Positions 46,225 through 61,145 of a stretch of DNA of 64,000 nucleotides are shown in pieces. The notes under the pieces are model-generated. The model made no database searches. It was not told the DNA's origin and worked only from the letters and a program-made list of their open reading frames with translations. The stretch's first letter is position 1. Each line of letters starts with the position of its first letter. The stretch covers positions 42,876 through 106,875 of the forward strand of contig CAWBMV010000021.1 in NCBI GenBank assembly GCA_963789955.1, written 5' to 3'. The position numbers were made by a program, and so were the translations under genes. Origin of the DNA: an uncultured Candidatus Rokubacteria bacterium. GTDB taxonomy: Bacteria; Methylomirabilota; Methylomirabilia; Rokubacteriales; CSP1-6.

Positions 46225-47279
46225 GACATCGGCCGGCCGGGGAATTCTTCGACACGCTCGCCGCCAACGCGCGGCGGGCCCGGGTGCCCGAGGGCGCGAC
46301 CTTCGAGCTGACCTACGGCTGCAACCTGCGCTGCGTGCACTGCTACAACCCCACGCATCGGGTCCTCCCGCACGAGCTGACCACGGTCGAGGTTCACTCG
46401 ATCCTGGAGCAATGCGCGGACCTCGGCCTGGCCACGATCTGCTTCAGTGGCGGCGAGCTCTTCGTCAGGCCGGACGTGTTCGAGATCTTCGAGCACGCCA
46501 GGCGCCTGGGCCTGATCCTGGAGCTGATCTCGAACGCCACGCGTATCACGCCCGAGATCGCCGATCGCTTGACGCCGATCGGGTTTCGCCATCTCGCCAT
46601 CTCGATCTACGGCGCGACGAAGCGGACGTACGAGCGCGTGACGAGCGTGCCCGGCTCGTATGACAAGTTCCTCGCCGGCCTTCGCTGCCTCGTGACCCGG
46701 GAGCTGCCGCTGACCGTGCGCATGCCGGTCATGACCGAGAACGCGCACGAAGTCGGCGAGGCTCGCGTCCTCGTCGAGGGCATGGGGATCAGATTCCAGT
46801 ATTGCCTGGACATCACGCCCGGAAGCGACGGAGATCTCGGGCCCTTGACGCACCGTCTGAGTCCTGACGCCAAGCTGCGCATCGACCTCGCCATGAAGGG
46901 CGATCGCCCGCCGGCCCGGGACGACGCGTCGTGCCGCGCGAGCGACGATTTCTTCGGGTGCGCGTGCGGGCATACCCGATTCGCGATCACTCCCTACGGC
47001 GAGATGAATCTCTGTGTGGCGTTTCCATCGCCCCGATACGATCTGCGGACCGGCAGTGTCAAGGCGGGCTGGGAAGTCCTCAAGCGAACGGTGGACGACG
47101 CCAGGCCCAGCGCGCGCTACGAATGTCCGGACTGCGACGTTCGCACCTACTGTCGCCAGGGGCGGAGCGACGCCTGGCTCGAGACGCGCGACATGAGCGC
47201 CTGCCTGCCGCACTACAAAGAGCTTGCGACTCTCGAGAAGGGCCTCGATGAGCACCGACGGCGCCGACGCGCTGATTGA
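46221..47279 (+). CDS. Radical SAM/SPASM protein 3
   Basis: CNLRCVHC, SGGE, ISNAT; CACG..PYGEMNLC..CPDCDVRTYC. Confidence 0.92.
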   Translation: MRHRPAGEFFDTLAANARRARVPEGATFELTYGCNLRCVHCYNPTHRVLPHELTTVEVHSILEQCADLGLATICFSGGELFVRPDVFEIFEHARRLGLILELISNATRITPEIADRLTPIGFRHLAISIYGATKRTYERVTSVPGSYDKFLAGLRCLVTRELPLTVRMPVMTENAHEVGEARVLVEGMGIRFQYCLDITPGSDGDLGPLTHRLSPDAKLRIDLAMKGDRPPARDDASCRASDDFFGCACGHTRFAITPYGEMNLCVAFPSPRYDLRTGSVKAGWEVLKRTVDDARPSARYECPDCDVRTYCRQGRSDAWLETRDMSACLPHYKELATLEKGLDEHRRRRRAD

Positions 47280-48249
47280 GGCGTACGCTCAGGTCAGCCT
47301 CGCCAACCAGCGGTCGTTTAGGGCGCTTGCCGTCGTCCTGTCCGAATTCAACGCGCACGGAATCGACGTCCTCGTCCTCAAGGGCGCCGACGTCCTGCCC
47401 CGGCTGTACGGGGTCTGGGGCGCGCGCCCCCTGACCGACGTGGACCTGCTCGTGCGGGACCGCGATCTGCCGGCCATCGATCGCATCGTCAGCGCGCTCG
47501 GCTACCAAGCTCTCATCGACGGCAATCCCGCCTATCGCGATCCGAACGGGTCGCTCCTGCTCGACATGGTGACGAGCCTCTGGTACGCAGAGGACTCCGA
47601 ACACGTGTGGCGGCGCGCGGTGCGACGCGAGCTGGCCGGCGTCTCGATCCGCGCGATGTGTGCCGACGATCTGCTCGTGTACCTGACGGCGTATTCGGTG
47701 CTCCACCGAGGTCACTTCGTGCCGTCCTTCGCCGTCGATGTCGGCTTGCTCGTGCGCAAGGAGCGGCTGAACTGGGACTACATCATCGAGGAAGCGCGCC
47801 GCCGGAATCTGAAGATCCCGCTGTATCACGGGCTGTCCTACGCGGCGCGACGCGAGTCCATCCCGATTCACGATCACGTCTGGCGCCGGCTCGCACCCGC
47901 TCGAGCCTCCGAGCGGGCGCTGCAGAGCTTGCTGCGAGCGCTCGTCACGGAGGAGCCCCTGTCCGATCTCGGTCACTTCCTGCTGCTCGTCTCATCACCG
48001 GGAGCGCAACGGTGGCGACGACTTCGCAAAGCCATCTGGCCGTCCGCGACGTTTCTGACCTGGCGATACGGGCCGGCGGGCGCGGCCTCGGCCCTCCGGA
48101 CGCGGTTCATCAGAGCCGTTCATCTCCTGGTGAAGGGCGTGATTCTCTCGGGCGCGATCGGCAAGCGTCTCGTTCGTTGCCGGGCGACGACCGCGCCGCC
48201 TCGGCTCACGGATCGGAAGGCGGCAGCGGAACGACCACGAAGCTCGTGA
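47248..48249 (+). CDS. Nucleotidyltransferase family protein (NTP_transf_5-like)
   Basis: LVLKGADV and RPLTDVDLLV (DxD) motifs. Confidence 0.85.
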   Translation: MSTDGADALIEAYAQVSLANQRSFRALAVVLSEFNAHGIDVLVLKGADVLPRLYGVWGARPLTDVDLLVRDRDLPAIDRIVSALGYQALIDGNPAYRDPNGSLLLDMVTSLWYAEDSEHVWRRAVRRELAGVSIRAMCADDLLVYLTAYSVLHRGHFVPSFAVDVGLLVRKERLNWDYIIEEARRRNLKIPLYHGLSYAARRESIPIHDHVWRRLAPARASERALQSLLRALVTEEPLSDLGHFLLLVSSPGAQRWRRLRKAIWPSATFLTWRYGPAGAASALRTRFIRAVHLLVKGVILSGAIGKRLVRCRATTAPPRLTDRKAAAERPRSS

Positions 48250-50746
48250 TGAAGCCGGTCCGGATCAATTCTCGGCCGTACGCTTCGGCCTCGGCTGATG
48301 TCTGGAATTGCCCGATCGAGACCGTCCCGGGCTCGGGCCCCTTCTGGCTCGGCAGGCCGGAGAGCCGAACCGTGAAGGTCTCGGGGCGAGCGGCCTCGCG
48401 AGCCAGCGGCCATGGCGCCTGCGCGCTGGCCGGAGCGGTCTGACCGATTTCCGAGCTCGACCGTGGCAGAACCGGCCGACCGGCGCGCCAGCGCCACGCT
48501 CCGGTGGTGAGAACTAGAAGCGCCAGGATGATCGCCGCGCTCCATCGGAGCACGCGCCATCGGTTCGCTACCAATCCTCGCGTCCTCCCGGGCTTGGCCG
48601 ACTCGACCTGCGATCCGTAGCGATAGCCGTACGACGCCATCTCCGCGTAGTCAGTGCTCAAGTCGGGTCGCACGCCGCTGAGGCAGACGCCGAGCAATCG
48701 AGTGCTCGTCGCGTCCAGTAAGGCCTTGGCCCGTCTGAGCGCGACGCGGGGCATGTGTCCCACCCGGATGACGAGCAGGGTCACGTCTGCGCGCGAGGCC
48801 AGGATGGCCGCGTCAGGCACCGGCAAGATCGGGGAGGAGTCGAGGATGACATAGTCGTACTTCGCGCGAGCTTCGGTCAGAACCTTGACGAGCCCCTGAG
48901 AGCTCAGAAGCTCGGATGGATTGGACGGCGAATAGCCGCTGAGCAGGACGAAGAAGTTGTCCATGCCCGGAGAGTCGAGCAGGCGCTCCATGCCGGCCTT
49001 GCCCATCATCAGCTCGGCGATGCCGAGGGTCACGTCACCGAGACTGACGGACCCGAGCACGGCCTCCGCCAATCCCGGCGCCTTCACGAGCCCGAGGGCG
49101 TGACGGATGTATGGCCTTCGGAGATCGGCCTCGACGAGCAGCGTCTTCTTGCCGAGCTGCGCGAGCGTGATCGCCAGATTGAGGGCGACCGTCGTCTTGC
49201 CCTCCATCTGCGAGCCGCCCGTCACCAGAATGGTCTTGAGGTCTCGCTCGAGGGTGGCGAAGACCACATTCGTGCGAAGACTGCGGAAGGCCTCGGCCAG
49301 CCGCGCCTTGGGAGCGAAGAGGCTCGTGAGAAACGGGTGCCGGCCGGCGTCATCCGGCGAGGCCACCTCTGTCGGCTCGTCGGCGAGATCCAGCTTGGGG
49401 TCAAGCGCGGGGATGACTCCGAGGACGCGCGTCTCCATCAATGACTCGACTTCATCGATGGCCCCGATCGAGTTGTCGAGCGCCTCGACGAGAAAGGCCA
49501 GAATCAGGCCCAAGATGAGCCCGATGAGGAGTCCGAACTGCGCCCGCGCGAGAGCGTGCACCGGATTCACCGGCGCGGTGACCGCGATCGCGGGCCTCAC
49601 GATGCTGACCTCGGCACCACGCTCCTTTTCCTTGATCAGCGCTTCCTGCAGCCGCTCCTTCAGGAGCGAGAAGATTCGCTCGTTGACCTTCACATCCCGC
49701 TCGATCCGGGTGGCTTCGAGCGCCGCGCCCGGCAGTGCTGCCTGCTTGGCCTTGACGCTCGCGATGGCGATCTGGGCCTCGGTGGCGTGGGCGCGCAGGA
49801 CCTGAAGCTTCGACGACAGCGCTTGCACGAGGGTGGCTCGGACGTTGGCGATACGAGCTTCGACGCCTTTGACCTGCGGATGGGTCGGCAAAAGGGTGAG
49901 CAGGAGATCCTGGCGCTCGACGGAGAGCTCGTTGAGAGAGGCCTGGAGCTTGGCCATCGCCGCGTCGCCGTCCGCCGAGAAGGCCGCGAGACGGTTTCCG
50001 GCGCGTCCTTCTTCGACGAGCCGCAGCTGGGTCTCCACGGTGCTGATTTCTCTCTTGATCCGGTCGTACTCCGCTTCCTGGAGCGCCCGGCGTCCCGAGG
50101 CTGCACGGAGCTCCTCCGGCACCGAAAGCCGCTGGTCGGCCTCCTGGAACACCTTCATCTGCTCTTCCGACTGGCGCAGGCGCTGCCCTACCTCTTTCAG
50201 CTGCGCCTCGATGAAGCGCCGAGCCTCCACGATCTGCTGCGTTCGGCTCGCGATGTTCTCGTCGCGGAAGGCTTCGGCCACGCTGTTGGCGACCAGCGCC
50301 GCGTTTGTGGGATCGGGAGACGTCGCGGAGATCTCGATGAGGCTCGTGCCGGCCGATCGCATGACTTGCAGCCGCCCGGCCAGGTCGCTGACGGTATCCT
50401 GATAGCGCGCGGAGGCTAGGATGTCTCCGGGCGTGACCTCTCGCGGAATCAGGCCGAGCTTGACGGCGGCGCGCCCGACGACCGGGAAGCTCGTGATGAG
50501 GGCAACCTGAGTTTCCATGTCGCCGACCGGGCTGATGTTGAGCACGTCGTTGAGGAGCAGCCCGGACACGTTGACGGCCCGCTCGAAGCGCACCGCGGCC
50601 GTCGCGCGATAGACCGGCGTGGGCGCCATCAGCAGCGTCATGGCGAGCGTGCCGAGAGTCATGACGACGCTCACCATGGCGACGAGCCACGCCCGGCGAC
50701 GGACGATCCGCCAGCAGTCCCGCGGATTGAAATCGTACTGGGTCAC
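48206..50746 (-). CDS. Wzc/GumC-like polysaccharide co-polymerase / BY-kinase with an extra C-terminal TM and small extension
   Basis: Wzz-type N-terminus, coiled coil with HPQV, AEAFRSLRTN, GKTT, EADLRRP, DSSP, Tyr-rich YAEMASYGYRYG. Confidence 0.88.
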   Translation of the reverse strand: MTQYDFNPRDCWRIVRRRAWLVAMVSVVMTLGTLAMTLLMAPTPVYRATAAVRFERAVNVSGLLLNDVLNISPVGDMETQVALITSFPVVGRAAVKLGLIPREVTPGDILASARYQDTVSDLAGRLQVMRSAGTSLIEISATSPDPTNAALVANSVAEAFRDENIASRTQQIVEARRFIEAQLKEVGQRLRQSEEQMKVFQEADQRLSVPEELRAASGRRALQEAEYDRIKREISTVETQLRLVEEGRAGNRLAAFSADGDAAMAKLQASLNELSVERQDLLLTLLPTHPQVKGVEARIANVRATLVQALSSKLQVLRAHATEAQIAIASVKAKQAALPGAALEATRIERDVKVNERIFSLLKERLQEALIKEKERGAEVSIVRPAIAVTAPVNPVHALARAQFGLLIGLILGLILAFLVEALDNSIGAIDEVESLMETRVLGVIPALDPKLDLADEPTEVASPDDAGRHPFLTSLFAPKARLAEAFRSLRTNVVFATLERDLKTILVTGGSQMEGKTTVALNLAITLAQLGKKTLLVEADLRRPYIRHALGLVKAPGLAEAVLGSVSLGDVTLGIAELMMGKAGMERLLDSPGMDNFFVLLSGYSPSNPSELLSSQGLVKVLTEARAKYDYVILDSSPILPVPDAAILASRADVTLLVIRVGHMPRVALRRAKALLDATSTRLLGVCLSGVRPDLSTDYAEMASYGYRYGSQVESAKPGRTRGLVANRWRVLRWSAAIILALLVLTTGAWRWRAGRPVLPRSSSEIGQTAPASAQAPWPLAREAARPETFTVRLSGLPSQKGPEPGTVSIGQFQTSAEAEAYGRELIRTGFITSFVVVPLPPSDP

Positions 50747-50756
50747 GAAGCGGTCT

Positions 50757-51815
50757 CTACTTGATGAGATCCCGGATCACGAAGTAGCTGGTGGCCCCCT
50801 GAAGCGGAATCGTCAGGAATTCGAGCGTGGGGCGGAGCTGCCCGAGGAACGCGTTCCAGTCGCCGATCTTGCTCCGCGGAATCACGATCAGATCGTTCGT
50901 CTGGAGCACGATGTCTTGGCTCCGGTCGGGCGCGTCGGTGAAACTCGTCGCGTAGACATCGACGATCTGCGGGCTGTGCAAATCCCCTCGGACCACTCGG
51001 ACACTGTCCAGCACCGCGGTGGGGGTAGGTCCGCCGGCCATGGCCAGGACCTGAGAGAGCCGGATATTCGGCGTGAAGGGATAGACTCCCGGGCTCTTCA
51101 CTTCGCCGATGACATACACCTTACGTTGTTCGTCCGGCGTTCTGGTCGGAACGAACACCACGTCGCCCGCGTCGAGGATCAGCTCCCGAAACCGCTGGCC
51201 CTCGGAGACGATGCGGAGCAGATCGACCGTGTAGGAATCACCCCCGCGCCGCAGCAGCCGGATCGCGCGCGGGTCGGCGTTCGACGTCAGCCCTCCGGCT
51301 TGCGCGAGGAGATCGACGAGATTCGTCTTGCCTTTCAGCGGGAACACGCCGAGCTTCGGAACCTCGCCAAGGACGGAGACCGTCTTGCTTGCGTACTCCT
51401 TGATCATCACCTCGACGGTGAGCTGCCGGTAGGTGGGCGCCAGCACCCGGCGGATCTCCTGTTCCGCCTGATCGGTCGTGAGCCCGTCGACGGCGGCCTC
51501 GAAGAAGCCAACGCTCACCTTCCCGTTGGGCTTCACCACCGCCGACATCCGGTCCAGGGCGAGCTCTCGAGCCAGCACGATGTCGAGAACATCGCCGGAC
51601 CCGATGCGGTATCGAGCCGCGCCATCGATCGTGACAAACGTTTGATTCCCCTCGACGGGCAGAGGGAGGACCAGGGGGGCGAGGGCTTCCGCCGGCGCCG
51701 CAGGAGGATTCGCCGCCGAGATGACCGTGGGGACGTGCATCGGAAAATATTCGGATGCGCATCCGGCCGCGCCGAGTAACACCAACAACAGCCAGAGTCG
51801 GGGCAAGCGCCTCAC
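50757..51815 (-). CDS. Wza-like polysaccharide export lipoprotein with SLBB domains
   Basis: AAGC lipobox; YRIGSGDVL; VLGEV..GVF; VIGEVKSPGVY. Confidence 0.88.
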   Translation of the reverse strand: MRRLPRLWLLLVLLGAAGCASEYFPMHVPTVISAANPPAAPAEALAPLVLPLPVEGNQTFVTIDGAARYRIGSGDVLDIVLARELALDRMSAVVKPNGKVSVGFFEAAVDGLTTDQAEQEIRRVLAPTYRQLTVEVMIKEYASKTVSVLGEVPKLGVFPLKGKTNLVDLLAQAGGLTSNADPRAIRLLRRGGDSYTVDLLRIVSEGQRFRELILDAGDVVFVPTRTPDEQRKVYVIGEVKSPGVYPFTPNIRLSQVLAMAGGPTPTAVLDSVRVVRGDLHSPQIVDVYATSFTDAPDRSQDIVLQTNDLIVIPRSKIGDWNAFLGQLRPTLEFLTIPLQGATSYFVIRDLIK

Positions 51816-52843
51816 AGAGCACCCATCTCGGCTTCCCGATTCAGCATCGCCTCCGTGACGAATCCTTGAATGTGGAGAAAGGGGTGTTGGCTGAGATCGA
51901 TCGCGTTCGGCTCCGTCACACGCTTGTGCTGGCGGACGAGAACGGTCAAGATCGGGCGAAGCGGAAAGCCGTCCTTCTTTGCCGCCACTCGGCAGATCTC
52001 GCCGGTGTTGAGACGCACGAGCGAGCCCACCGGAAGGGTCGCCAGGATACGAATCAGGGCTTTGAGGACCTGGTGGGGATAGGTGCCTCGCTCGCGCTTG
52101 AGAACTTCTTTGATGATCTCGGCATGCCCGACGCCCGAGCGGACCGGCCGGCGGCGCACGAGCCCCTCGATGATCCCGGCGAGCCCGACGATGTGGGCGG
52201 GCTCGCGGCTGTCCGTGTCCTCGACGTCGGCCGTGGCGCCGGCTCCGTTCGGGTGCTCCCGGAGCTGGGCGAGCACCGCCGCCGCACCCGGGTACCGGAC
52301 CTTCAAACCTTGAACAACCTGCATATCCTCCCCCGAGGCTCGAGCGACTCCGGCCTGATGGAGCAAGGCCGCCACGCCGAGCTCGAGCAGCGCATCGTGC
52401 GTATAGCTGAGCTGCGTCCCGATCTTCATCGCGAGCACGCAGCCATTCACGGCCGTTTCAGCCGCGTCGCCGGAGCCTCCGCCCGGGTTGAAGAACGGCA
52501 GCAGCAAGATGTCGCTGGTCTGGACACTCTCGAGGAGAGCCTTCAGCGGCGCCTCGAGCCCGGTGGCGGAAAACGACGTCCGAGCTCGAAGCGAGCGAAG
52601 CACCTTGTCGGTGATCGCCACGGCCCGATGAAACGCGTCATTGGAGCGCCGAAGATCTTGGGAGGGTTCGGCACCAATCGCAGGCGCGGCGCCGAAGCCG
52701 GCCGATTCGTCCGGGGCATCGCTCCAGCTTGCGTCGCCGGAGCGCGCGGGTTCAACCGCTCTCGGGATGTCCGCTGTCCGACCTCGCACGAGGTCGGCCA
52801 TCGTCATCCGGTTTCTCCCCGACGCCTTCCTGGAGCTCGTCAT
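51812..52843 (-). CDS. Degenerate HD-GYP-like protein
   Basis: LGVAALLHQAG (HD replaced by HQ), no GYP, and the typical C-terminal PVGSLVRLNTGE..PLRP domain. Confidence 0.65.
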   Translation of the reverse strand: MTSSRKASGRNRMTMADLVRGRTADIPRAVEPARSGDASWSDAPDESAGFGAAPAIGAEPSQDLRRSNDAFHRAVAITDKVLRSLRARTSFSATGLEAPLKALLESVQTSDILLLPFFNPGGGSGDAAETAVNGCVLAMKIGTQLSYTHDALLELGVAALLHQAGVARASGEDMQVVQGLKVRYPGAAAVLAQLREHPNGAGATADVEDTDSREPAHIVGLAGIIEGLVRRRPVRSGVGHAEIIKEVLKRERGTYPHQVLKALIRILATLPVGSLVRLNTGEICRVAAKKDGFPLRPILTVLVRQHKRVTEPNAIDLSQHPFLHIQGFVTEAMLNREAEMGAL

Positions 52844-52845
52844 GC

Positions 52846-53667
52846 TCAGGTGAGGGCGGCCGCCGCCATGACGAGAGGCACGTCGACCTCACGGACTTTT
52901 CGTCTCTGGCCTTCGTACAGGCAGATGTCGCTGAGCTTGTTGACGTTCCGCAGAATTCCGCCGGTCTCCTTGTAGATCGCCCGCACCGCGTCTTCGGTGA
53001 AGATGGGCCTCGTCGCCCCGGCCCGCTCGAGGCGGAAGTCGATGTATTGAGCGGTCTCGCTCTCGTCCAGAGCCTCGAGACTCAGGCGTAGCGCCATCCG
53101 CTGACGGAGGGCATCCAATCCATCGAGCGTGGCCCGGAGAATCGGCAATCCGATGAGCACGAGCGAAAGCAACTGGCGGTCGTTGGTCTGGAGATTCAAG
53201 AGCATCTGTAAATCCTCGAAGACCGCCTCGTGCCGGATGAGGTGAGCGTCGTCGACGATGAGCACCGTGGTCCGACCTTCGCCTGCGTTCGCGAGCAGGT
53301 GGTCGCGCAGCGAACGAAAGAGCGCCAGCCGCTCGGAGCTGCGCGGGGACAGCGCCAGCTGCGTCGCGACCTCGTAGAGGAACTCGTCCGGTGGGAGGGC
53401 CGGATTGATCACAAGCCCGACGTCGTACGTTTGCGTATCGAGGCTCAGCAGAAAGACGCGACTCAAGGTGCTCTTCCCGCTTCCCTCTGCTCCCGTGATG
53501 ACGACACTCCCGTGACCGCTCTCGACCGTGTAGACGAGTCTCTCGAGCGCCTCTTGATGGGTTGGCAACGGACAGAACACGCTCGGATCGGGAACATTGC
53601 GAAACGGCGGCTGGCGCAGCGCCCAGTAGGGCTCGTACACGGGCCTAGGACCTGGGACTCTGGACAC
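52846..53667 (-). CDS. ExeA/GspA-family AAA ATPase
   Basis: YWALRQPPFRNVPDP, GAEGSGKST, LIVDDAH, LVLIGLP, GGILRNVN. Confidence 0.88.
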   Translation of the reverse strand: MSRVPGPRPVYEPYWALRQPPFRNVPDPSVFCPLPTHQEALERLVYTVESGHGSVVITGAEGSGKSTLSRVFLLSLDTQTYDVGLVINPALPPDEFLYEVATQLALSPRSSERLALFRSLRDHLLANAGEGRTTVLIVDDAHLIRHEAVFEDLQMLLNLQTNDRQLLSLVLIGLPILRATLDGLDALRQRMALRLSLEALDESETAQYIDFRLERAGATRPIFTEDAVRAIYKETGGILRNVNKLSDICLYEGQRRKVREVDVPLVMAAAALT

Positions 53668-53863
53668 TACCGCGGAGATTTCGCGCGGTCGACCCGTCCG
53701 GGACGCTGTCGGCGACGAGATCCAGGATGCGTCGTCTGCTGAAGCGCCATCGGCGCCCGATCTTGTTCCCGGGAATGACCCCCTGCTCGGCGAGTCGGTA
53801 GACGGTCTTCACGTGGACCTGAAGGAGGGTGGCCACCTGAGCTGGAGTGATTATTTCCTGCAA
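53645..53863 (-). CDS. Excisionase-like helix-turn-helix DNA-binding protein
   Basis: ITPAQVATLLQVHVKTVYRLAEQGVIPGNKIGRRWRF. Confidence 0.82.
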   Translation of the reverse strand: MQEIITPAQVATLLQVHVKTVYRLAEQGVIPGNKIGRRWRFSRRRILDLVADSVPDGSTARNLRGSVQSPRS

Positions 53864-54394: not shown

Positions 54395-55967
54395 TTAGCG
54401 CTGATCCTTCAGCAACCAGTCGATCGCGGCACTACCGTCGCCCGCGTCCGGTCTGGTCCGTTCGGCTTGTGCCGGCTGCTCGGTCGGGACTCGGCGCTCG
54501 ACGGAACTCACGGATTCAGCGGCGGCCCCCGATTCGATGGCGGGGCGCGGACGGCTGCCGACCGCGACCGGCGCGACCGGCTGTGGCCGCGCCACGGCGG
54601 GCGCGGGGAATGGCCTGCCGGCTCCCAGAGCAGGGCGTTCCAGGGTCGATTTGTCCGTGAGGGAGCGAGACTCCGGACGCCCCGACGTCGGTTCGCGAGT
54701 GGCCCACGCCGGCACCTCCGCCGGCGGATTCCCGTCGCGCTCGCGCCGTGACCGGACGAGCGCCGGCGCGGAGAGCGGCCTGCCGACCTCTGGAGCGAGC
54801 CGTTGGGTCGATTTCTCCGTGATCGAGCGCGGCTCCCGGAGCGTCGACGTCGGTTCGCGAGTGGCCCATGCCGGCGGTGAAGACTCGGCCGGCGGATTGG
54901 CGTCACCCTCGACCGGAACGGCTGTCACAGCGGGTGGCGTGACGCGGCTCTGGAACTGCGAGACGATTCGATCGAACCCCGCGACCCAGACGACCGCGGC
55001 GACGATGCCCGCGGTGACGATCCGCCGCCGTCATACGAAGCGTGAACACCGGCTGACGCTGGCGGACTCGTCGACGCGGATTCCCGCGCGCCTTTACCGA
55101 GCGGGGGCGAGACTCCGGTTCGGTGAGGACCGCCATCGCGCCCCAGATGTCGTTCAGCATCACGCTGACGTCTGGATAGCGATGCACCGGTCGCGCTTCG
55201 AGCGCGGTCGTGATGATCCGCTGGATCGGCGGCGACAGCGGCGGTGCCGCGGCGAACGGGCTGCCGGTCGCGCTGGCCTTGCCGGCGGTCAACAGCTGCC
55301 GTAGCAGCATCCCCAGCGCGTAGACGTCGGTCGCCGCGGTCGTCTCACCGCGCTCGATCTGTTCGGGCGCGCGATAGGCGAGCGAGAACTCGTCGCGCAG
55401 GCGAAGCCCGATCGGCGTGCGATACGCGGCCGCCAGCTCGACGCCCACGAGCCGGATACGTTCGCCGTCGTTGACCATGAGCACCGATTCGGGCCCCAGC
55501 TGGCCGTGAAGAAGCCGATTGTGATGCAGCGCCTCGAGCGCCTCGCCGATACGGATCGCGACGCGCAGCGCGGTGGCCACGGCCAGCGGACCGCCCGCAT
55601 CGAGAACTTCACGGAGGGTGGCGCCCTCGGCCCACTCGAGCGCCACGAAGAACTGGCCGGCCTCGGTCACGCCGTATTCGTAGACTCGCTGCACGCCCCG
55701 CAGGGCGTGGGCCGCCGCCGCGAGTGCTCTCGCTTGATTCCGCACGGCCGCCACGAACTCCGCATCACGGGCGAACTCGTCTCGCAGCACCTTCAGCGCG
55801 ATCGATCGACCGTGATGGATGTCCTCGGCGCTGTACACGACGACTTCGCGGCTCACCGACGCGACCGCGTTGACCCGGTAACGGGACTTGATGACGGAAC
55901 CGGCGAGGCCCAGTTCCGGTGCCGACGCAGATTCGCCCGCCGCTCCGGCCGTCACGTGGCTCGTCAC
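54395..55967 (-). CDS. Membrane-anchored Ser/Thr pseudokinase with a repeat-containing C-terminus; frameshift near 55020
   Basis: IALKVL, YRAPEQ, TDVYALG retained; HRDLKPxN replaced by HGQLGPES and DFG by GVE; TM helix; ends AAIDWLLKDQR. Confidence 0.75.
54587..54900 (-). repeat. Two imperfect ~50-aa tandem repeats in the pseudokinase tail
   Basis: NPPAE..PAWATREPTS..E.RS.T.KST occurs twice; DNA cgacgtcggttcgcgagtggccca is repeated. Confidence 0.8.
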
Positions 55968-56214: not shown

Positions 56215-57693
56215 ATGCAGAAGCTCGTTGAAATGGCGCGCCGCACCCTCGATATCGACCAGAAGGCGGCCGAAGCGGCCCGTCGTGACAATCCCAAGAC
56301 CTTGAGCGCCTCGCTCGACGTCACCGAATCGGAGATTTGCTCGCACTTCGTCGCGCTGGCGCGACAGCGCCGGGAAAGCTGCGAAGAGAGCCTGGCCCGG
56401 CTGCAGCTCGATCGCAAGGCGACGGCGGCGAAGATCGACCTCGAGCAAACGCGGGATTCCTTCGCGCGGCTGCTGTCCCCCGTCGAGCCGAGTCTCGAAA
56501 AGCTCAAGTCAGACCACGCGACCGCCCTGTATCAAGCCAAGGAGAACGAGGCGCGCGCGCTCAAACATCTGCGCTGGTTCCAGCAGAAGCACGGCCTGCA
56601 CTACCGGGCCGCGTCGTATCCACAATCGCAGTTCTACCACTTCGCGATCGTGGCCGCCCTGGCCCTCGTCGAATGGGTTTCGCTGGCGGCGTTCTACGCC
56701 GAAGGCAGCGACTTCGGTCTGTTGGGCGGCGTCCTGATCGCCATGACGCTCTCCATCGTCAACGTCAGTCTCGCGATTCTCTCGGGGAGCCTTCTGCGGT
56801 ACGTCAATCACCGAAGCCCGCGCCGGAAGGGTCTCGCGTTGACCGGCGTTGCCGTGCTCTACACGTGCTTTCTCCTGGTGACGCTCGCGGCCGCCCACTA
56901 CCGCGTGGCCACCAACGACGTCGCGCAGTCCCAGCCGGGGATGTCGACGCCGAGCGCGACGTCGTTGCCGCCGCCTCAGGTCGCCCAGGACCTGGATCAA
57001 TGGCGAGCGGCCAGACTGGCGTGGCAGCGCTTCGCCAGGAACCCCGTCGGCTTCGACGACGTCTTTTCCTGGATCCTGGTCGTGCTCGCGGTCATCTTCG
57101 GGATCTTCGCCTCGTACAAGGGGTACCGGCTCGACGACGCCTACCCAGGCTATGGCGAGCTCGATCGAGAGCTCAACGCGAGGCGGACGAGCTCCGAGGC
57201 GGCCAAGGTCGACTACTGCCGCCGGGTGGACCAGGTCTTCGATCGCATCCTCCAGGAGCAGGGTCGCCTGCTCTCGGATGTGAGATCGAACATCGAATAC
57301 TATCAGCAGCTGATCAGCCGGAGCGTCGACGAGCGTCGAACGTTCGTGCACGACGCGGCCGAAATCCAGGACGCGTGCAACATCGTCCTGAAGCGCTACC
57401 GGCAGACGAACGCCCGCGTGCGCCAGTCGCCGGCGCCGTTCTATTTCAACAACAGCTTCACGTTCGACGGCCGCCTCGTCGGGCCGCCCGAGGCCATCTC
57501 GGAAAACGAGGAACGACTGTCGCAATCCTACGAGAGCGCCATCAAGGACTTCAGCGATATCGCCCGGCAGAACGACGCGACGGTCCAGAATCTGCGTACC
57601 GCCGAGATCCGGCGCCGCGACTACTATTTCAACAAGCTCGAGCGCGACATCCGGGAAAAGCTCATTCGCGAGGCCTGGGAAGTCAAGAGCTGA
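56215..57693 (+). CDS. Hypothetical membrane protein with about four TM segments flanked by coiled coils
   Basis: AGGAG RBS before ATG 56215; hydrophobic segments; GYRLDDAYPGYG after the last TM. Confidence 0.75.
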   Translation: MQKLVEMARRTLDIDQKAAEAARRDNPKTLSASLDVTESEICSHFVALARQRRESCEESLARLQLDRKATAAKIDLEQTRDSFARLLSPVEPSLEKLKSDHATALYQAKENEARALKHLRWFQQKHGLHYRAASYPQSQFYHFAIVAALALVEWVSLAAFYAEGSDFGLLGGVLIAMTLSIVNVSLAILSGSLLRYVNHRSPRRKGLALTGVAVLYTCFLLVTLAAAHYRVATNDVAQSQPGMSTPSATSLPPPQVAQDLDQWRAARLAWQRFARNPVGFDDVFSWILVVLAVIFGIFASYKGYRLDDAYPGYGELDRELNARRTSSEAAKVDYCRRVDQVFDRILQEQGRLLSDVRSNIEYYQQLISRSVDERRTFVHDAAEIQDACNIVLKRYRQTNARVRQSPAPFYFNNSFTFDGRLVGPPEAISENEERLSQSYESAIKDFSDIARQNDATVQNLRTAEIRRRDYYFNKLERDIREKLIREAWEVKS

Positions 57694-57697
57694 CGCC

Positions 57698-58516
57698 GTG
57701 CCGTTGAGCCACCTGGATCGGCGGGGCATCTGGATTCTGAGCGGCATCGGCGCCTTCGCGGTCGTGTTGCTGGCCACCGTGGTCGGTGTCACCTGGACCC
57801 GCCCCATCATCGGGGCCGACAACTGTGTCTACCGGGACAAGCGATTCCTCAGTCGAGCGCCCGCCGATCAAACCGTGATCCTGGTCGACCAGTCGGAGGC
57901 CTTGACGGACACTCACCGGCGATTCGCCCTGACTTTCATCAAGGACTACGTCGCCGACGACTCGAAGTTCAGCGTGCGCTCGCGCATCGCGTTGTTCACC
58001 TTCAGCAAAGCGACATTCGAATCTCCGAACGGCCCGCGGCTGAGTCCGAGCTCCGACTTGTGCCGGCCGCCGTCACATGGCAACGACCTGTACGAAAACA
58101 GCCGGAAGATCACGAAGGACTTCTACCAGCGATTCCTGATCCCGGTCACCGCCGCGCTCGACGAAAGCCTGACGACCGAGGTCGGCGAGCAATCGCCCAT
58201 TCTCGAGACGCTGCAGCTCATCTCGCGGTCGCAGGAAATCGGCGACGGCGGGAAAAAGACCCTCATCGTCGTCTCGGACATGCTCCAGCACACCGCGGCG
58301 TTCAATCAGTACGGGCCTCGCCGCAGCTACGAGGACTTTCTGCGATCGGGATTCGCCACCGATGTGAAGGCAGATTTCCGCGACTGGAACGTCATCGTGA
58401 TCTATCTCCGGCGCTATCGGGATCGCCAGCTGCAGCAGGCCGCACACATCGACTTCTGGCAGCGATATTTCCACGAAGCGGGCGCCAAGATCACTCGCTG
58501 GGCCGGAGTCGACTGA
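57698..58516 (+). CDS. Membrane-anchored vWA-like protein
   Basis: N-terminal TM; VILVDQS, SPILETL and LIVVSDMLQH MIDAS-like elements; FWQRYF C-terminus. Confidence 0.65.
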   Translation: MPLSHLDRRGIWILSGIGAFAVVLLATVVGVTWTRPIIGADNCVYRDKRFLSRAPADQTVILVDQSEALTDTHRRFALTFIKDYVADDSKFSVRSRIALFTFSKATFESPNGPRLSPSSDLCRPPSHGNDLYENSRKITKDFYQRFLIPVTAALDESLTTEVGEQSPILETLQLISRSQEIGDGGKKTLIVVSDMLQHTAAFNQYGPRRSYEDFLRSGFATDVKADFRDWNVIVIYLRRYRDRQLQQAAHIDFWQRYFHEAGAKITRWAGVD

Positions 58517-58518
58517 GC

Positions 58519-60210
58519 ATGACGCGCCTCGCCGCGAGTCTGGCTTCCACGTTCCTCGGCTTCATCGCCGCCGGGGTCGGCGTGATCGTGGCGTTCAGCT
58601 GGTGGTCCGGGGGCGCCTCGGGCGGGTCGCGGCATTGGACGATGACCGCCCTGGTCGTGGGACTCATGGTGGTCTACGGAATCGTCCTCTGGGTCAGGTC
58701 GGGGACGGCGTACGCGTCCGAGACCGATGGCGAGACGTTCTACTACCTCGGCTTCATCTACACCCTGGCGACCCTGGTCGCCACGTTTGCGCCGCTGCTC
58801 AACTCAACGGAGCGACCGGACAGCCGACAGGTGCTGGGGTTCTTCGGTCTGGGTCTCATCACGACGTTCGTCGGGCTGGCCGGGCGCATCGTCTTCGCCC
58901 AGGCCTCGTCCGGCGCGCTCGCGAGCCCCGAGAACGACGCCCGTCGACTGGGCGACGCGTATACGGAAGCGGCGCGCGCCATCGAGCGGAGCACGGTTCG
59001 AATCGTGCATGCCCAGCAGCGCGCCGAAGGACACCTGAGCGAGTCGTATTCGGGCGCAGTCGAGACGATTCGCATCCTGTCGGGCCGGGTCACGCAGCAG
59101 TTCGAAACGATGAGCGCCCAGGTGTTGAAGGACTTCGCCTCGGTCATCGAGCGCGTCAGCGCCGGCGCCGAATCGGCGTTGGGCGAGGTCCGCGATCGCG
59201 CCGTCCGGGACATCGACGTCGCGTCTCGCCAGGCGGTGAAGACTCACGAGATGGCCAAGGAGCAGGTCGAGCAGCTCACGACCGGGACGGCTGGTGCGGT
59301 GCGCACCGTGACGGAGCAAGCGGTTCAAGAGGTGGCGCGGGTGGCGCGAGAATCGTCGGCCGAGGTGACCGAGTTCTTCCGTCACACGAGCGGCCACGTC
59401 GCCGCGACCCTGCAGCAATTCGAGACGCGTCTCGGGGCATTCCGATTGCCGCCGGAGGAGCTCGGCGAGAAGCTCGTCGTGGTCTTGACGGAGCTCGCCG
59501 AACGCGCCGATCTGCTGCGGCGAGCGACGACGATCGTGGGCGCCGCATACGGCGAGCTCGAAGCGACCTTGGCCAACGCCGTGGAGGGCGCACGTGGCGG
59601 CAGCCGAGCGTTCAGCACCCTGGCCGTCTCCGCGGATGCCGCCGCCTCGGCGGTGACGTCGGCGAAGACGAACGTCGAGCAATTCGCCACGCATCTGGGC
59701 CAGCTCGGGGAGCTGGCGACGGACCTCGAAAAGCTGCCCCGGGAGGCGGCGACCATCATCGCGACCCTCGGCGACCTGCGCACGAACATCGGGGAAACCA
59801 ACCGCGCGTGGGCCGAGGTGGCCGGGACGACCGAGGGCGCGAGCAAATCGATGGCCCGAGCGGGAGCGGCGTTGTCCGCCTTCGAGCACGGGACACGCGC
59901 GGCGGAGCAGTCGGTTCTCGACTGGAGCGGCAGCTTGACGAAGGCCGGTGTCGGCCTGCAAGCGCTGACCGAGATCACGGAGCGGGCCGTGCGGCTCGGC
60001 AAGGACGCCGTCGCCGCTCAGGTCCAGCTGTCGGCACAGATATCCGGGCCACTGGCGGATCAATTGCGCAAGCACAGTGAGGCCGCCGGCGCTCTGGCCG
60101 ATCGTTTACAGGAAGATCTCCGAACGTCGGAAGAAGCGGTGAGGAAAGTCCATCATCATCTCATCGACGCATCGCGCTTCATCCTGAGCAAGGTCGAATA
60201 CCGCCGGTGA
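58519..60210 (+). CDS. MotA/TolQ/ExbB- or ZorA-like channel protein with a long helical tail
   Basis: Four N-terminal TMs including YYLGFIYTL and GLGLITTFVGL (ALxTTxxGL-like), then about 420 aa of Ala-rich helical sequence. Confidence 0.65.
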   Translation: MTRLAASLASTFLGFIAAGVGVIVAFSWWSGGASGGSRHWTMTALVVGLMVVYGIVLWVRSGTAYASETDGETFYYLGFIYTLATLVATFAPLLNSTERPDSRQVLGFFGLGLITTFVGLAGRIVFAQASSGALASPENDARRLGDAYTEAARAIERSTVRIVHAQQRAEGHLSESYSGAVETIRILSGRVTQQFETMSAQVLKDFASVIERVSAGAESALGEVRDRAVRDIDVASRQAVKTHEMAKEQVEQLTTGTAGAVRTVTEQAVQEVARVARESSAEVTEFFRHTSGHVAATLQQFETRLGAFRLPPEELGEKLVVVLTELAERADLLRRATTIVGAAYGELEATLANAVEGARGGSRAFSTLAVSADAAASAVTSAKTNVEQFATHLGQLGELATDLEKLPREAATIIATLGDLRTNIGETNRAWAEVAGTTEGASKSMARAGAALSAFEHGTRAAEQSVLDWSGSLTKAGVGLQALTEITERAVRLGKDAVAAQVQLSAQISGPLADQLRKHSEAAGALADRLQEDLRTSEEAVRKVHHHLIDASRFILSKVEYRR

Positions 60211-60866
60211 TCGGGAGGAGCCGACTCGCCCGGAATCGCGACATCGCGCTGACGACACTCATCGATCTCCTCGTCCAGATCATCTTCGTGTTCGCCCTCG
60301 TACTGATTTCGGCCGATGTGATGGGCAACGAGTCACCCGAGCGAGGCTGGGTGACGCCGGAGGTCTGGAAAACGCTGATCAGCATCTTCGACATCGATCC
60401 TCGCAGCATCCGCGATACGAGCGCCCAGGTCGCGGAGATCAACCGTCAGCACGAGAAGCTCAAAGACGATCTGCTGGCCTGTGACGCGAGAATCGGCGCG
60501 TGCGACAAACAGGCGGGGAAAGGGCCGGGAAACGCTCCGTGCCGAAATTCGGCCGGCGTCGAAATGGTCGTGGCCGAGGCGACGATCGATCGCGACGGAA
60601 GGATCGTCGTCGCGCCGGGACACGATGCGGCGGAGCTCCAGAACCAGCGACCGCTCGGCGCCGGCGCGATCGGCGTGCCGCTCTCCGTCGAGCAGTTCGG
60701 ATCCTTGTTCCGGTCCTGGCGCGAACATGGCCTGGCCCGTCAGCCGTCGTGTGCCTTCAAGGCCGAAGTCAGCTACGACGCCCGCGCCCGAGCCGGCGAC
60801 TATGAACCGGCGCGACGGGCGATCGCGAACTACTTCACCCTGTCAGCGCCGCCGAGGCGCTTCTGA
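60207..60866 (+). CDS. ExbD/MotB/ZorB-like single-pass protein
   Basis: LTTLIDLLVQIIFVF TM with Asp (cf. ExbD LTPLIDV); periplasmic TIDRDGRIVV segment; overlaps the upstream gene by 4 nt. Confidence 0.6.
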   Translation: MIGRSRLARNRDIALTTLIDLLVQIIFVFALVLISADVMGNESPERGWVTPEVWKTLISIFDIDPRSIRDTSAQVAEINRQHEKLKDDLLACDARIGACDKQAGKGPGNAPCRNSAGVEMVVAEATIDRDGRIVVAPGHDAAELQNQRPLGAGAIGVPLSVEQFGSLFRSWREHGLARQPSCAFKAEVSYDARARAGDYEPARRAIANYFTLSAPPRRF

Positions 60867-60878
60867 GGCGTTGACCGC

Positions 60879-61145
60879 GTGGCGCGCGAGACACTCCCGG
60901 ATCTCGCGTACCAGCTGTCGGCGCTCCTGAGCGAGCTCGACGCCGCCATCCGAGCGCGGTCGCCGGAGCTCGGGAGGCAGGAGACCAGCCAGCGACTGGA
61001 GACCGCTCAACCCAACAGCGGGCTGCGCGAAGTGGTGCGGGCCACTCTCCGCTGGTTCTCCCGCCCGCCTACGCGTCAGCCCACCGTCGGGCGTACGCGC
61101 TCCGCGCGCGCGAGATCGCGAAGGTCGACGCGCCGTAGGTCCTAG
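60879..61145 (+). CDS. Small hypothetical protein
   Basis: ORF 12 nt after the operon; no recognisable motif. Confidence 0.3.
   Translation: MARETLPDLAYQLSALLSELDAAIRARSPELGRQETSQRLETAQPNSGLREVVRATLRWFSRPPTRQPTVGRTRSARARSRRSTRRRS

Follow-up and report, generated by a model that had tools for sequence, protein, structure and literature searches.

In the Zorya systems of types I-III, whose ZorA5B2 complex is treated in passages of PMC11946911 and PMC11890865, residues T147 and S184 of ZorA contact D26 of ZorB (PMC11946911), and one ZorAB structure binds Na+ (PMC11890865). The sodium sites of PomAB comprise G154, T158, A182, T185, and T186 of PomA and T21 and D24 of PomB (part of PMC10374538). 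The B-subunit aspartate is described as universally conserved in the passages of PMC11946911, and an Asp-to-Glu exchange slows flagellar motors, with motility reduced rather than abolished (an excerpt of PMC6663468). In GldLM/PorLM, the long cytoplasmic tail of the pentamer is a proposed anchor so that the periplasmic dimer turns (sections of PMC9389320), and motor-linked membrane vWA transducers are proposed in portions of PMC12204202. Many further uncharacterised non-flagellar motors are noted in passages of PMC12505986, which do not mention the cassette described here. This cassette consists of four genes, G1-G4, at positions 56215 to 60866 of a 64,000-nucleotide stretch of DNA from an uncultured Candidatus Rokubacteria bacterium (the window; contig CAWBMV010000021.1 of assembly GCA_963789955.1). 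It is a real, widespread, and apparently undescribed variant of the 5:2 motors with an unclassified membrane core; literature searches, which covered mostly listings and the beginnings of abstracts, returned no description of it.

All four genes lie on the forward strand: G1 (56215..57693; 492 amino acids, ATG start, GCAGGAG upstream), G2 (57698..58516; 272 amino acids, GTG start), G3 (58519..60210; 563 amino acids, ATG start), and G4 (60207..60866; 219 amino acids, GTG start). G1 and G2 are separated by 4 nucleotides and G2 and G3 by 2 nucleotides, and G3 and G4 overlap by 4 nucleotides (GTGA), which confirms the arrangement of four co-oriented genes, with gaps of at most 4 nucleotides or overlaps, reported in the original prediction from the DNA letters. 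The G+C content at third codon positions is 0.81-0.86. A hydropathy scan assigns four transmembrane (TM) helices to G1, one to G2, four to G3, and one to G4. None of the four products matches a family at cut-off in Pfam, NCBIfam, or PADLOC, the last being a check that the original prediction had proposed, and sequence searches of the PDB yielded coiled-coil or chance matches only. Among named records, the closest come from Rokubacteria/Methylomirabilota, with 85% identity for G2.

Because direct searches with G3 failed, the TM part of 33 G3 homologues was aligned as a profile and compared by HHalign with a reference profile of 22 MotA/ExbB/TolQ sequences drawn from genomes. The match had a probability of 80.6 and a score of 37.7, against a maximum of 17.4 for block-shuffled controls and 11.1 for the TM block of G1; a true comparison, MotA against ZorA, gave a probability of 82.2 and a score of 40.4. 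Compared with five ZorA sequences, the G3 profile gave an E value of 3e-4. In both registers T82 and T115/T116 of G3 fall on pore residues. These residues belong to the motifs G78-x3-T82, T115-T116, G119, and R123 in the last two TM helices, which carry the pore motifs G-x-x-x-T and A-L-x-x-T; T82 is conserved in 33 of 33 rows and the Ser/Thr pair in 61 of 61. In addition, one G3 homologue matches MotA_ExbB with an E value of 2.5e-4, and the top named cluster for G3 in the atlas is MotA-like (score 0.94; the family is given on 13% of the members). At the curated cut-off of Pfam PF01618, G3 found no match, and one of 22 homologues came to 21.3 bits against a cut-off of 22.9. These profile comparisons support the assignment of G3 to the A-subunit family of MotA, ExbB, TolQ, and ZorA, as had been proposed in calling it MotA/ExbB-like.

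In G3, which has four TM helices, about 15 residues link TM2 to TM3, and a large cytoplasmic domain is absent from this position. The helical tail after the last TM helix, previously put at about 420 residues, is indeed long and counts 440. Across 61 loci, the tail measures 136-460 residues (median 318), some copies being shortened by contig ends or insertions; at locus L018 (8709-9916), an insertion sequence interrupts G3 inside the tail. By arithmetic, 440 residues in one continuous helix would span about 65 nm, near the 70 nm of ZorA. With the full G3 profile, ZorA (8vvn, E value 1e-11) ranks first in the PDB, through a match that is mostly coiled coil and is not relied on here. When four TM domains of G3 and two helices of G4 were predicted as a complex, the score was 0.09, which was counted neither for nor against an assembly.

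For G4, the single TM helix carries T17-x-x-D20 and is followed by a short stalk and a periplasmic domain with Cys112 and Cys182. Position 20 is acidic in 58 of 58 sequences, as Asp in all 13 Rokubacterial loci and as Glu in all 45 others, and the residue three positions before the acid is Thr or Ser in 56 of the 58. The helix is thus supported, at the level of sequence, as an acidic helix of the MotB/ZorB type. The Asp-bearing helix that the original prediction described is present; Glu, however, is the family norm and Asp a Rokubacterial trait, and the periplasmic domain was not matched to ExbD, its HHalign score against nine references only being 12.6, below the shuffled maximum of 14.7. 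The domain with its two invariant cysteines recurs in many other copies and has no match in Pfam or the PDB and no known family. No OmpA domain is matched by Pfam in G4 here, as predicted, whereas 8 of 30 G4 homologues contain one at an E value of 1e-3 or lower, and more do so weakly in further scans. The periplasmic end of G4 is therefore exchangeable, being the Cys-pair domain here and OmpA, or OmpA plus a nuclease, in relatives.

The residue spacing of G3 and G4 together (G-x3-T and small residue-x2-T-T in the A subunit, T-x-x-acid in the B subunit) equals that of the PomAB sodium site as given in part of PMC10374538. Because several ordinary MotA/ExbB references have a Thr pair as well, which counts against a specific reading, this Thr signature is taken only as a hint at Na+. 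The architecture of a 5:2 ion-driven rotary motor, as predicted from these features of G3 and G4, is very probable. Whatever its function, a natural Glu family with one Asp lineage provides a ready test case for ion-rotation coupling in 5:2 motors.

G2 consists of one N-terminal TM anchor and a vWA domain, predicted to be periplasmic, that begins about 25 residues past the TM helix. A profile search collected 1238 clusters at 50% identity, and a model built from 132 of them reached a predicted local distance difference test (pLDDT) value of 96.3. In a wide structural search, the top rows for this model were vWA/I-domain proteins (best Z 11.9, root-mean-square deviation 3.6, 172 residues aligned), with which Foldseek agreed; the modelled fold is thus that of a vWA, Rossmann-like domain, and the earlier naming of gene 2 as a vWA protein holds. 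Family libraries of VWA matched only 1 of 132 members, weakly. The canonical MIDAS motif is D-x-S-x-S...T...D. The corresponding residues in G2 are D64-x-S66-E67, S166, and D194, conserved as D64 in 132 of 132 rows, S/T66 in 131, D/E67 in 129, S/T166 in 132, and D194 in 131, with position 68 variable. Four of the five MIDAS positions are kept, with an acid at position 67 instead of the second serine, which departs from the canonical motif; G2 is predicted to contain a variant metal site. Cys43 and Cys122 are each conserved in 131 of 132 rows and therefore point to a periplasmic disulfide. The TM helix is poorly conserved and contains no conserved His, Ser, or Asp in the 132 rows. Two homologues have added domains: P0175 ends in a weakly TolA-like C-terminal domain (residues ~290-395; 33% identity over 87 residues, pairwise E value 0.002, no Pfam match), and P0397 in C-terminal ankyrin repeats.

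G1 is an inner-membrane protein of an unclassified family. Its TM helices lie at approximately residues 143-161, 164-193, 207-228, and 283-301, and its model (pLDDT 92.6, predicted template modelling score 0.70) places them between long N- and C-terminal helices, which form a predicted three-helix rod. Both ends, and hence the rod, would be cytoplasmic, judging from the charge bias in a positive-inside count. Glu153, which lies within TM1, does not vary across the 48 rows, Asn183 is conserved in 47 of them, and Arg230 in 46; further conserved motifs are H228-Y-R230 and Y-P311-G. Fold searches of the PDB and viral libraries returned generic helical bundles only (the best, Z 12.4, being a designed protein), the atlas placed G1 in unnamed clusters only, and no match to the PspA/ESCRT or flotillin families was found. 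A MotA paralogue was also considered for G1 and rejected; its TM block scored 11.1 against the MotA/ExbB/TolQ profile.

Compared with the described systems, the cassette shares with Zorya, as far as the passages of PMC11946911 and PMC11890865 describe it, MotA-type pore helices with a Thr/Ser ring, a long C-terminal helical tail, an acidic residue in the B-subunit TM helix, OmpA in part of the family, and an association with nucleases. In contrast, ZorA has three TM helices and a membrane-proximal cytoplasmic domain, seen as a long insert in the references, whereas G3 has four TM helices without that domain; most G4 proteins use Glu instead of Asp, and their periplasmic domain is swappable and not OmpA here; and the nucleases are extracytoplasmic and optional. 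The fixed partners, too, are others than ZorC-G, namely a rod protein with four TM helices and a vWA protein. A PADLOC scan of G1, G2, and 120 selected neighbours detected no ZorC, ZorD, ZorE, ZorF, or ZorG, in agreement with the prediction of partners other than ZorC/D/E. The cassette is not Zorya, because of the missing ZorC-G genes, the different topology, and the absence of an OmpA domain from this copy. It differs from PomAB, as portrayed in part of PMC10374538, in the absence of a torque domain and of a flagellar context, in its long tail, in its usual Glu, and in the lack of OmpA in this copy.

With the transducers of PMC12204202, as outlined in portions of that paper, G2 shares the design of an inner-membrane-anchored periplasmic vWA domain beside a TolQ/MotA-type motor. 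It differs from them in having neither an SHLS helix with a long linker nor an Asp-bearing transpore helix and in being tied to G1, often without a motor; the cassette motor, moreover, comes with a B subunit of its own and with a long tail. ExbBD-TonB and TolQRA have A subunits of the same pore family, and G4 here resembles their B subunits in its compact, non-OmpA periplasmic domain. However, the cassette contains no TonB or TolA gene, the periplasmic domain of G4 is unmatched to ExbD, and the ExbD references have Thr-Pro four residues before the acid, whereas G4 has Thr three residues before it, in the MotB/PomB style. The homologues do not lie in TonB/Tol operons, and the genome has ordinary TolQR/ExbBD loci elsewhere, so the TonB/Tol housekeeping context that would have spoken against the original prediction was not encountered. 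GldLM/PorLM has the long tail on its pentamer in common with G3, yet the evidence of kinship is limited to coiled-coil matches, and no type IX secretion genes accompany the cassette.

The distribution of the genes was followed in 113 loci fetched via G2 (80, 3 plasmid regions, and a further 30), among which many are close kin and a few are repeats. G1 is adjacent in 103 loci, G3 in 61, and G4 in 58; two more G4 genes were found separately and one locus is cut by a contig end. G1 is missing from 10 loci, of which 3 lie at the edge of a contig and the remaining 7 are distant and weaker matches. In samples chosen independently of neighbourhood, 301 and 300 genomes of two proteobacterial classes, G2 was present in 22 and 8 genomes, counts that include the centre genome, and G3 in 13 and 1, respectively; of the 14 G3-bearing genomes among the 601, 13 have G3 immediately after G2. 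Five genomes with only G1-G2 contained no G3 elsewhere by profile, the single match being a cytochrome oxidase subunit, and a weak search among longer proteins found no G1-G2 fusion. Because G1-G2 often occurs without the motor and the motor almost never without G1-G2, G1-G2 is regarded as the core, on which the motor depends. This reverses the original prediction, in which the motor was the centre and the vWA and polytopic proteins its partners: G1-G2 is an unannotated membrane module, present in those 22 of 301 genomes of one class, onto which the motor is grafted in about half.

The order of the four genes is conserved across several phyla and is not due to chance, because it recurs in relatives within the carrier genus and in 61 of the 113 G2 loci, bearing out the synteny expected of it. 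Within the genus, 7 of 16 other genomes carry the cassette, against 0 of 44 additional genomes from its family and order; many of the genomes are incomplete. A quick G2 tree, whose deep branches are not resolved, requires four changes between the two-gene and four-gene labels; the four-gene state may have a single origin. G2 is carried by 24 plasmid records, and all three that were opened hold the full operon; harmless, cultured hosts with such plasmids are Rhizobium, Microvirga, and Paracoccus. Transposase and integrase genes neighbour some of the loci. Mobility of the cassette is evident, and its pattern is that of an accessory element. No relatives of G2 were found among 50,697 phage records. 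One prophage-like viral contig (L248, 1202-9890) contains umuDC-like genes, as read from open reading frames (ORFs), followed by G1-G4 and a thermonuclease. At L093 (7892-13112), and behind G2 at L097, the genes directly after G1-G2 encode a coupling protein of type IV secretion and a resolvase, which suggests carriage on a conjugative element. In motor-less loci of the Bosea group (L050-L085), the gene just upstream of G1 encodes a membrane protein of about 200 residues that is conserved and unannotated and may be a lineage-specific partner.

A link to nucleases was found in part of the family. A thermonuclease is fused to G4 at three loci (L046, L144, and L149) and adjacent at four (L051, L098 in convergent orientation, L100, and L148), which makes 7 of the 61 motor loci and none of the 52 others, rows that are not independent. 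The chance expectation is about 0.07 from 3 thermonuclease genes per genome; the five genomes checked hold 3-5 each. On the quick tree, these loci fall into at least two starred clades and one lone branch. In addition, an HNH-type GmrSD_C domain is fused behind the OmpA domain of G4 at L047, and a PLD nuclease with a signal-like N-terminus is encoded upstream at L145. The fusions sit at the periplasmic end of G4, and the stand-alone genes start, by eye, with signal-like hydrophobic stretches; the associated nucleases are predicted to be extracytoplasmic.

Because the motor of relatives often bears a DNA-cutting enzyme on its outer face, the cassette is tentatively read as a guard of the envelope against DNA crossing the periplasm. 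This defence role, together with the interactions it presupposes, has a little less than an even chance of being correct. In such a guard, a ligand would be bound at the variant metal site in the periplasmic vWA domain of G2, and G1 would hold G2 and relay across the membrane through the invariant Glu153. Five G3 subunits would ring two G4 helices, and H+ or Na+ passing Asp20/Glu20 of G4 would turn one part against the other. The periplasmic end of G4 would fix the shaft to the wall in OmpA versions or to another partner in the Cys-pair version found here, and the long tail of G3 would work on the cytoplasmic rod of G1. For the OmpA-less version, an alternative geometry would be a tail-held pentamer and a turning dimer, as in the GldLM model described in sections of PMC9389320, with the rod of G1 as a candidate anchor. 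In many relatives, DNA would be cut at this place by a nuclease that G4 carries or has as its neighbour; the nuclease-free copy here would need another output. If the nuclease link is functional, this would be motor-driven defence in the periplasm rather than in the cytoplasm. A fuller version, a periplasmic immune machine in which a vWA sensor and a 4-TM transducer gate a Glu-based, Na+-driven 5:2 motor whose exchangeable shaft payloads (wall anchors, thermonuclease, HNH nuclease) destroy phage or plasmid DNA before it reaches the cytoplasm, appears improbable.

Several observations weigh against parts of this interpretation. With regard to the motor, the TM-only profile of G3 retrieves no solved motor from the PDB, and the PADLOC ZorA model is matched by only 1 of 33 G3 members (E value 4e-4). 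With regard to dependence on the core, the exception among the 14 genomes, G380, has G3-G4 at a contig start with DNA upstream that is not G2. With regard to defence, about 20 loci of the Bosea group keep G1-G2 at one fixed chromosomal site among housekeeping genes, no cytoplasmic effector gene is present in the cassette, and nucleases are absent both from the surroundings of this copy and from all 13 Rokubacterial loci; secreted nucleases also serve nutrition. Defence genes, scanned at E value cut-offs of 1e-8 and 1e-15 with our own gene calls and, for the four-gene loci, in 120 selected neighbours, are found no farther than about 7-9 kb from 8 of 36 non-Rokubacterial four-gene loci by hand count (L018, L032, L042, L046, L047, L146, L148, and L164), from 2 of 15 two-gene loci, and from 2 of 16 arbitrary windows of carrier genomes (1-3 with borderline matches), and near 0 of 9 Rokubacterial loci scanned. 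The defence-island enrichment that the original prediction had looked to is thus not significant in this small comparison (8/36 versus 2/16, Fisher p = 0.7), and its proposal of a new anti-phage system stays plausible while the enrichment is indistinguishable from background. A PADLOC match to 'mad8' at L018 was rejected, the protein being a HerA/TrwB-like ATPase.

Other explanations were weighed as well. A non-defence transducer of the Ton/Tol kind is possible though unlikely. The motor would energise G1-G2, and the vWA domain would pull on a protein in the outer membrane or periplasm to take up or break down macromolecules (among them extracellular DNA as food), to adhere, or to handle surface polymers. 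Such a transducer is favoured by the proposal of motor-linked vWA transducers in portions of PMC12204202, by the TolA-like end of the homologue P0175, by the missing defence-island enrichment and the fixed housekeeping context in the Bosea group, and by the extracytoplasmic position of the nucleases. However, the TM helix of G2 has neither a conserved SHLS motif nor a conserved Asp and is not followed by a long Pro-rich linker, no conserved outer-membrane receptor gene lies nearby, long A-subunit tails are a trait of Zorya and GldL in the passages that treat them, and P0175 is a single case without a Pfam match. Less likely still, and rather remote, is an envelope-stress or membrane-integrity system, in which G1-G2 senses damage, the motor reports the ion gradient via its tail, and a kinase-like protein encoded upstream regulates in Rokubacteria. 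Four membrane-bound products, long helical rods, the lack of an enzyme in this copy, the joint gain and loss of the kinase-like gene with the cassette in the genus, and the occurrence of G1-G2 without a motor in many genomes would fit it, but it leaves unexplained why nucleases of three unrelated folds were recruited repeatedly, no regulator is conserved outside Rokubacteria, and G1 is unmatched to the PspA/ESCRT or flotillin families.

Two further explanations concern the nature of the motor. That G3-G4 is not a rotary motor, the small-residue helix pattern having arisen convergently in an unrelated channel, would be consistent with the lack of Pfam and PADLOC matches for this G3, with the failure of the TM-only profile to find a PDB motor, and with the replacement of a conserved Asp by Glu. 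The profile match, which keeps the correct register and far exceeds both the shuffled controls and the G1-TM control, the homologue matching MotA_ExbB, the MotA-like top named cluster, and the succession of an A gene and a B gene with an acidic TM helix and OmpA domains make it highly improbable. An ordinary, very divergent Zorya system with soluble effectors encoded elsewhere is the least probable reading of all. The match of the full G3 profile to 8vvn, mostly coiled coil, the HHalign match to ZorA, the tail lengths, and the OmpA-type G4 proteins of relatives would speak for it; against it stand the absence of ZorC-G among the 120 neighbours, the four TM helices of G3 without the cytoplasmic domain of ZorA, the near-obligate link of the motor to G1-G2, and the scores of G3 in one run, 37.7 against MotA/ExbB/TolQ and 28.5 against ZorA.

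The part of the window from 47.2 to 64 kb also contains an exopolysaccharide export cluster, an AAA ATPase, a helix-turn-helix (HTH) gene, a kinase-like gene, an alcohol dehydrogenase, and a hydrolase-cyclase. As originally stated, no TonB, flagellar, helicase, or nuclease genes were found in it. The export cluster (47224-53863; a Wzc-like kinase, a Wza-like export protein, the AAA ATPase, a nucleotidyltransferase, and the HTH gene) is probably unrelated, because it is not beside the cassette in 8 relative loci. A scan for promoters and terminators gave nothing that exceeds shuffled sequences. Contigs from four RNA libraries overlap parts of G1-G4; expression is not claimed, since one contig also crosses the divergent intergenic gap, which leaves DNA carry-over possible. 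Elsewhere, L148 (15244-17591) has a pair made up of a PP2C phosphatase and a Ser/Thr kinase-OB protein, with strong PADLOC matches, near the cassette, and ADP-ribosylglycohydrolase genes lie near it at L025 (3893-5368), L146 (3874-5342), and L053 (10892-12157), two of them with a dual-specificity phosphatase.

The kinase-like membrane gene (54395..55967, reverse strand) is divergent from G1 and is associated with the cassette, of which it would be a member. It is split here by one extra base near 55021, whereas three relatives have a single ORF of 468-473 residues. Because the base is missing from the RNA-run contigs of three of the four runs and relatives have the intact ORF, the split may reflect either an error of the assembly or a lesion in this strain. 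The product is without the catalytic Asp and the DFG motif, the usual catalytic motifs of kinases. The gene is present in all seven relative loci that include upstream DNA, and five genomes of the genus without the cassette have only paralogues of 33-36% identity; within the genus, it comes and goes together with the cassette. Downstream of G4, a possible small fifth ORF (60879..61145, forward strand; 88 amino acids, no family) is a weak candidate for a further member, the first 70 residues of which are 54-64% conserved behind G4 in four relative loci.

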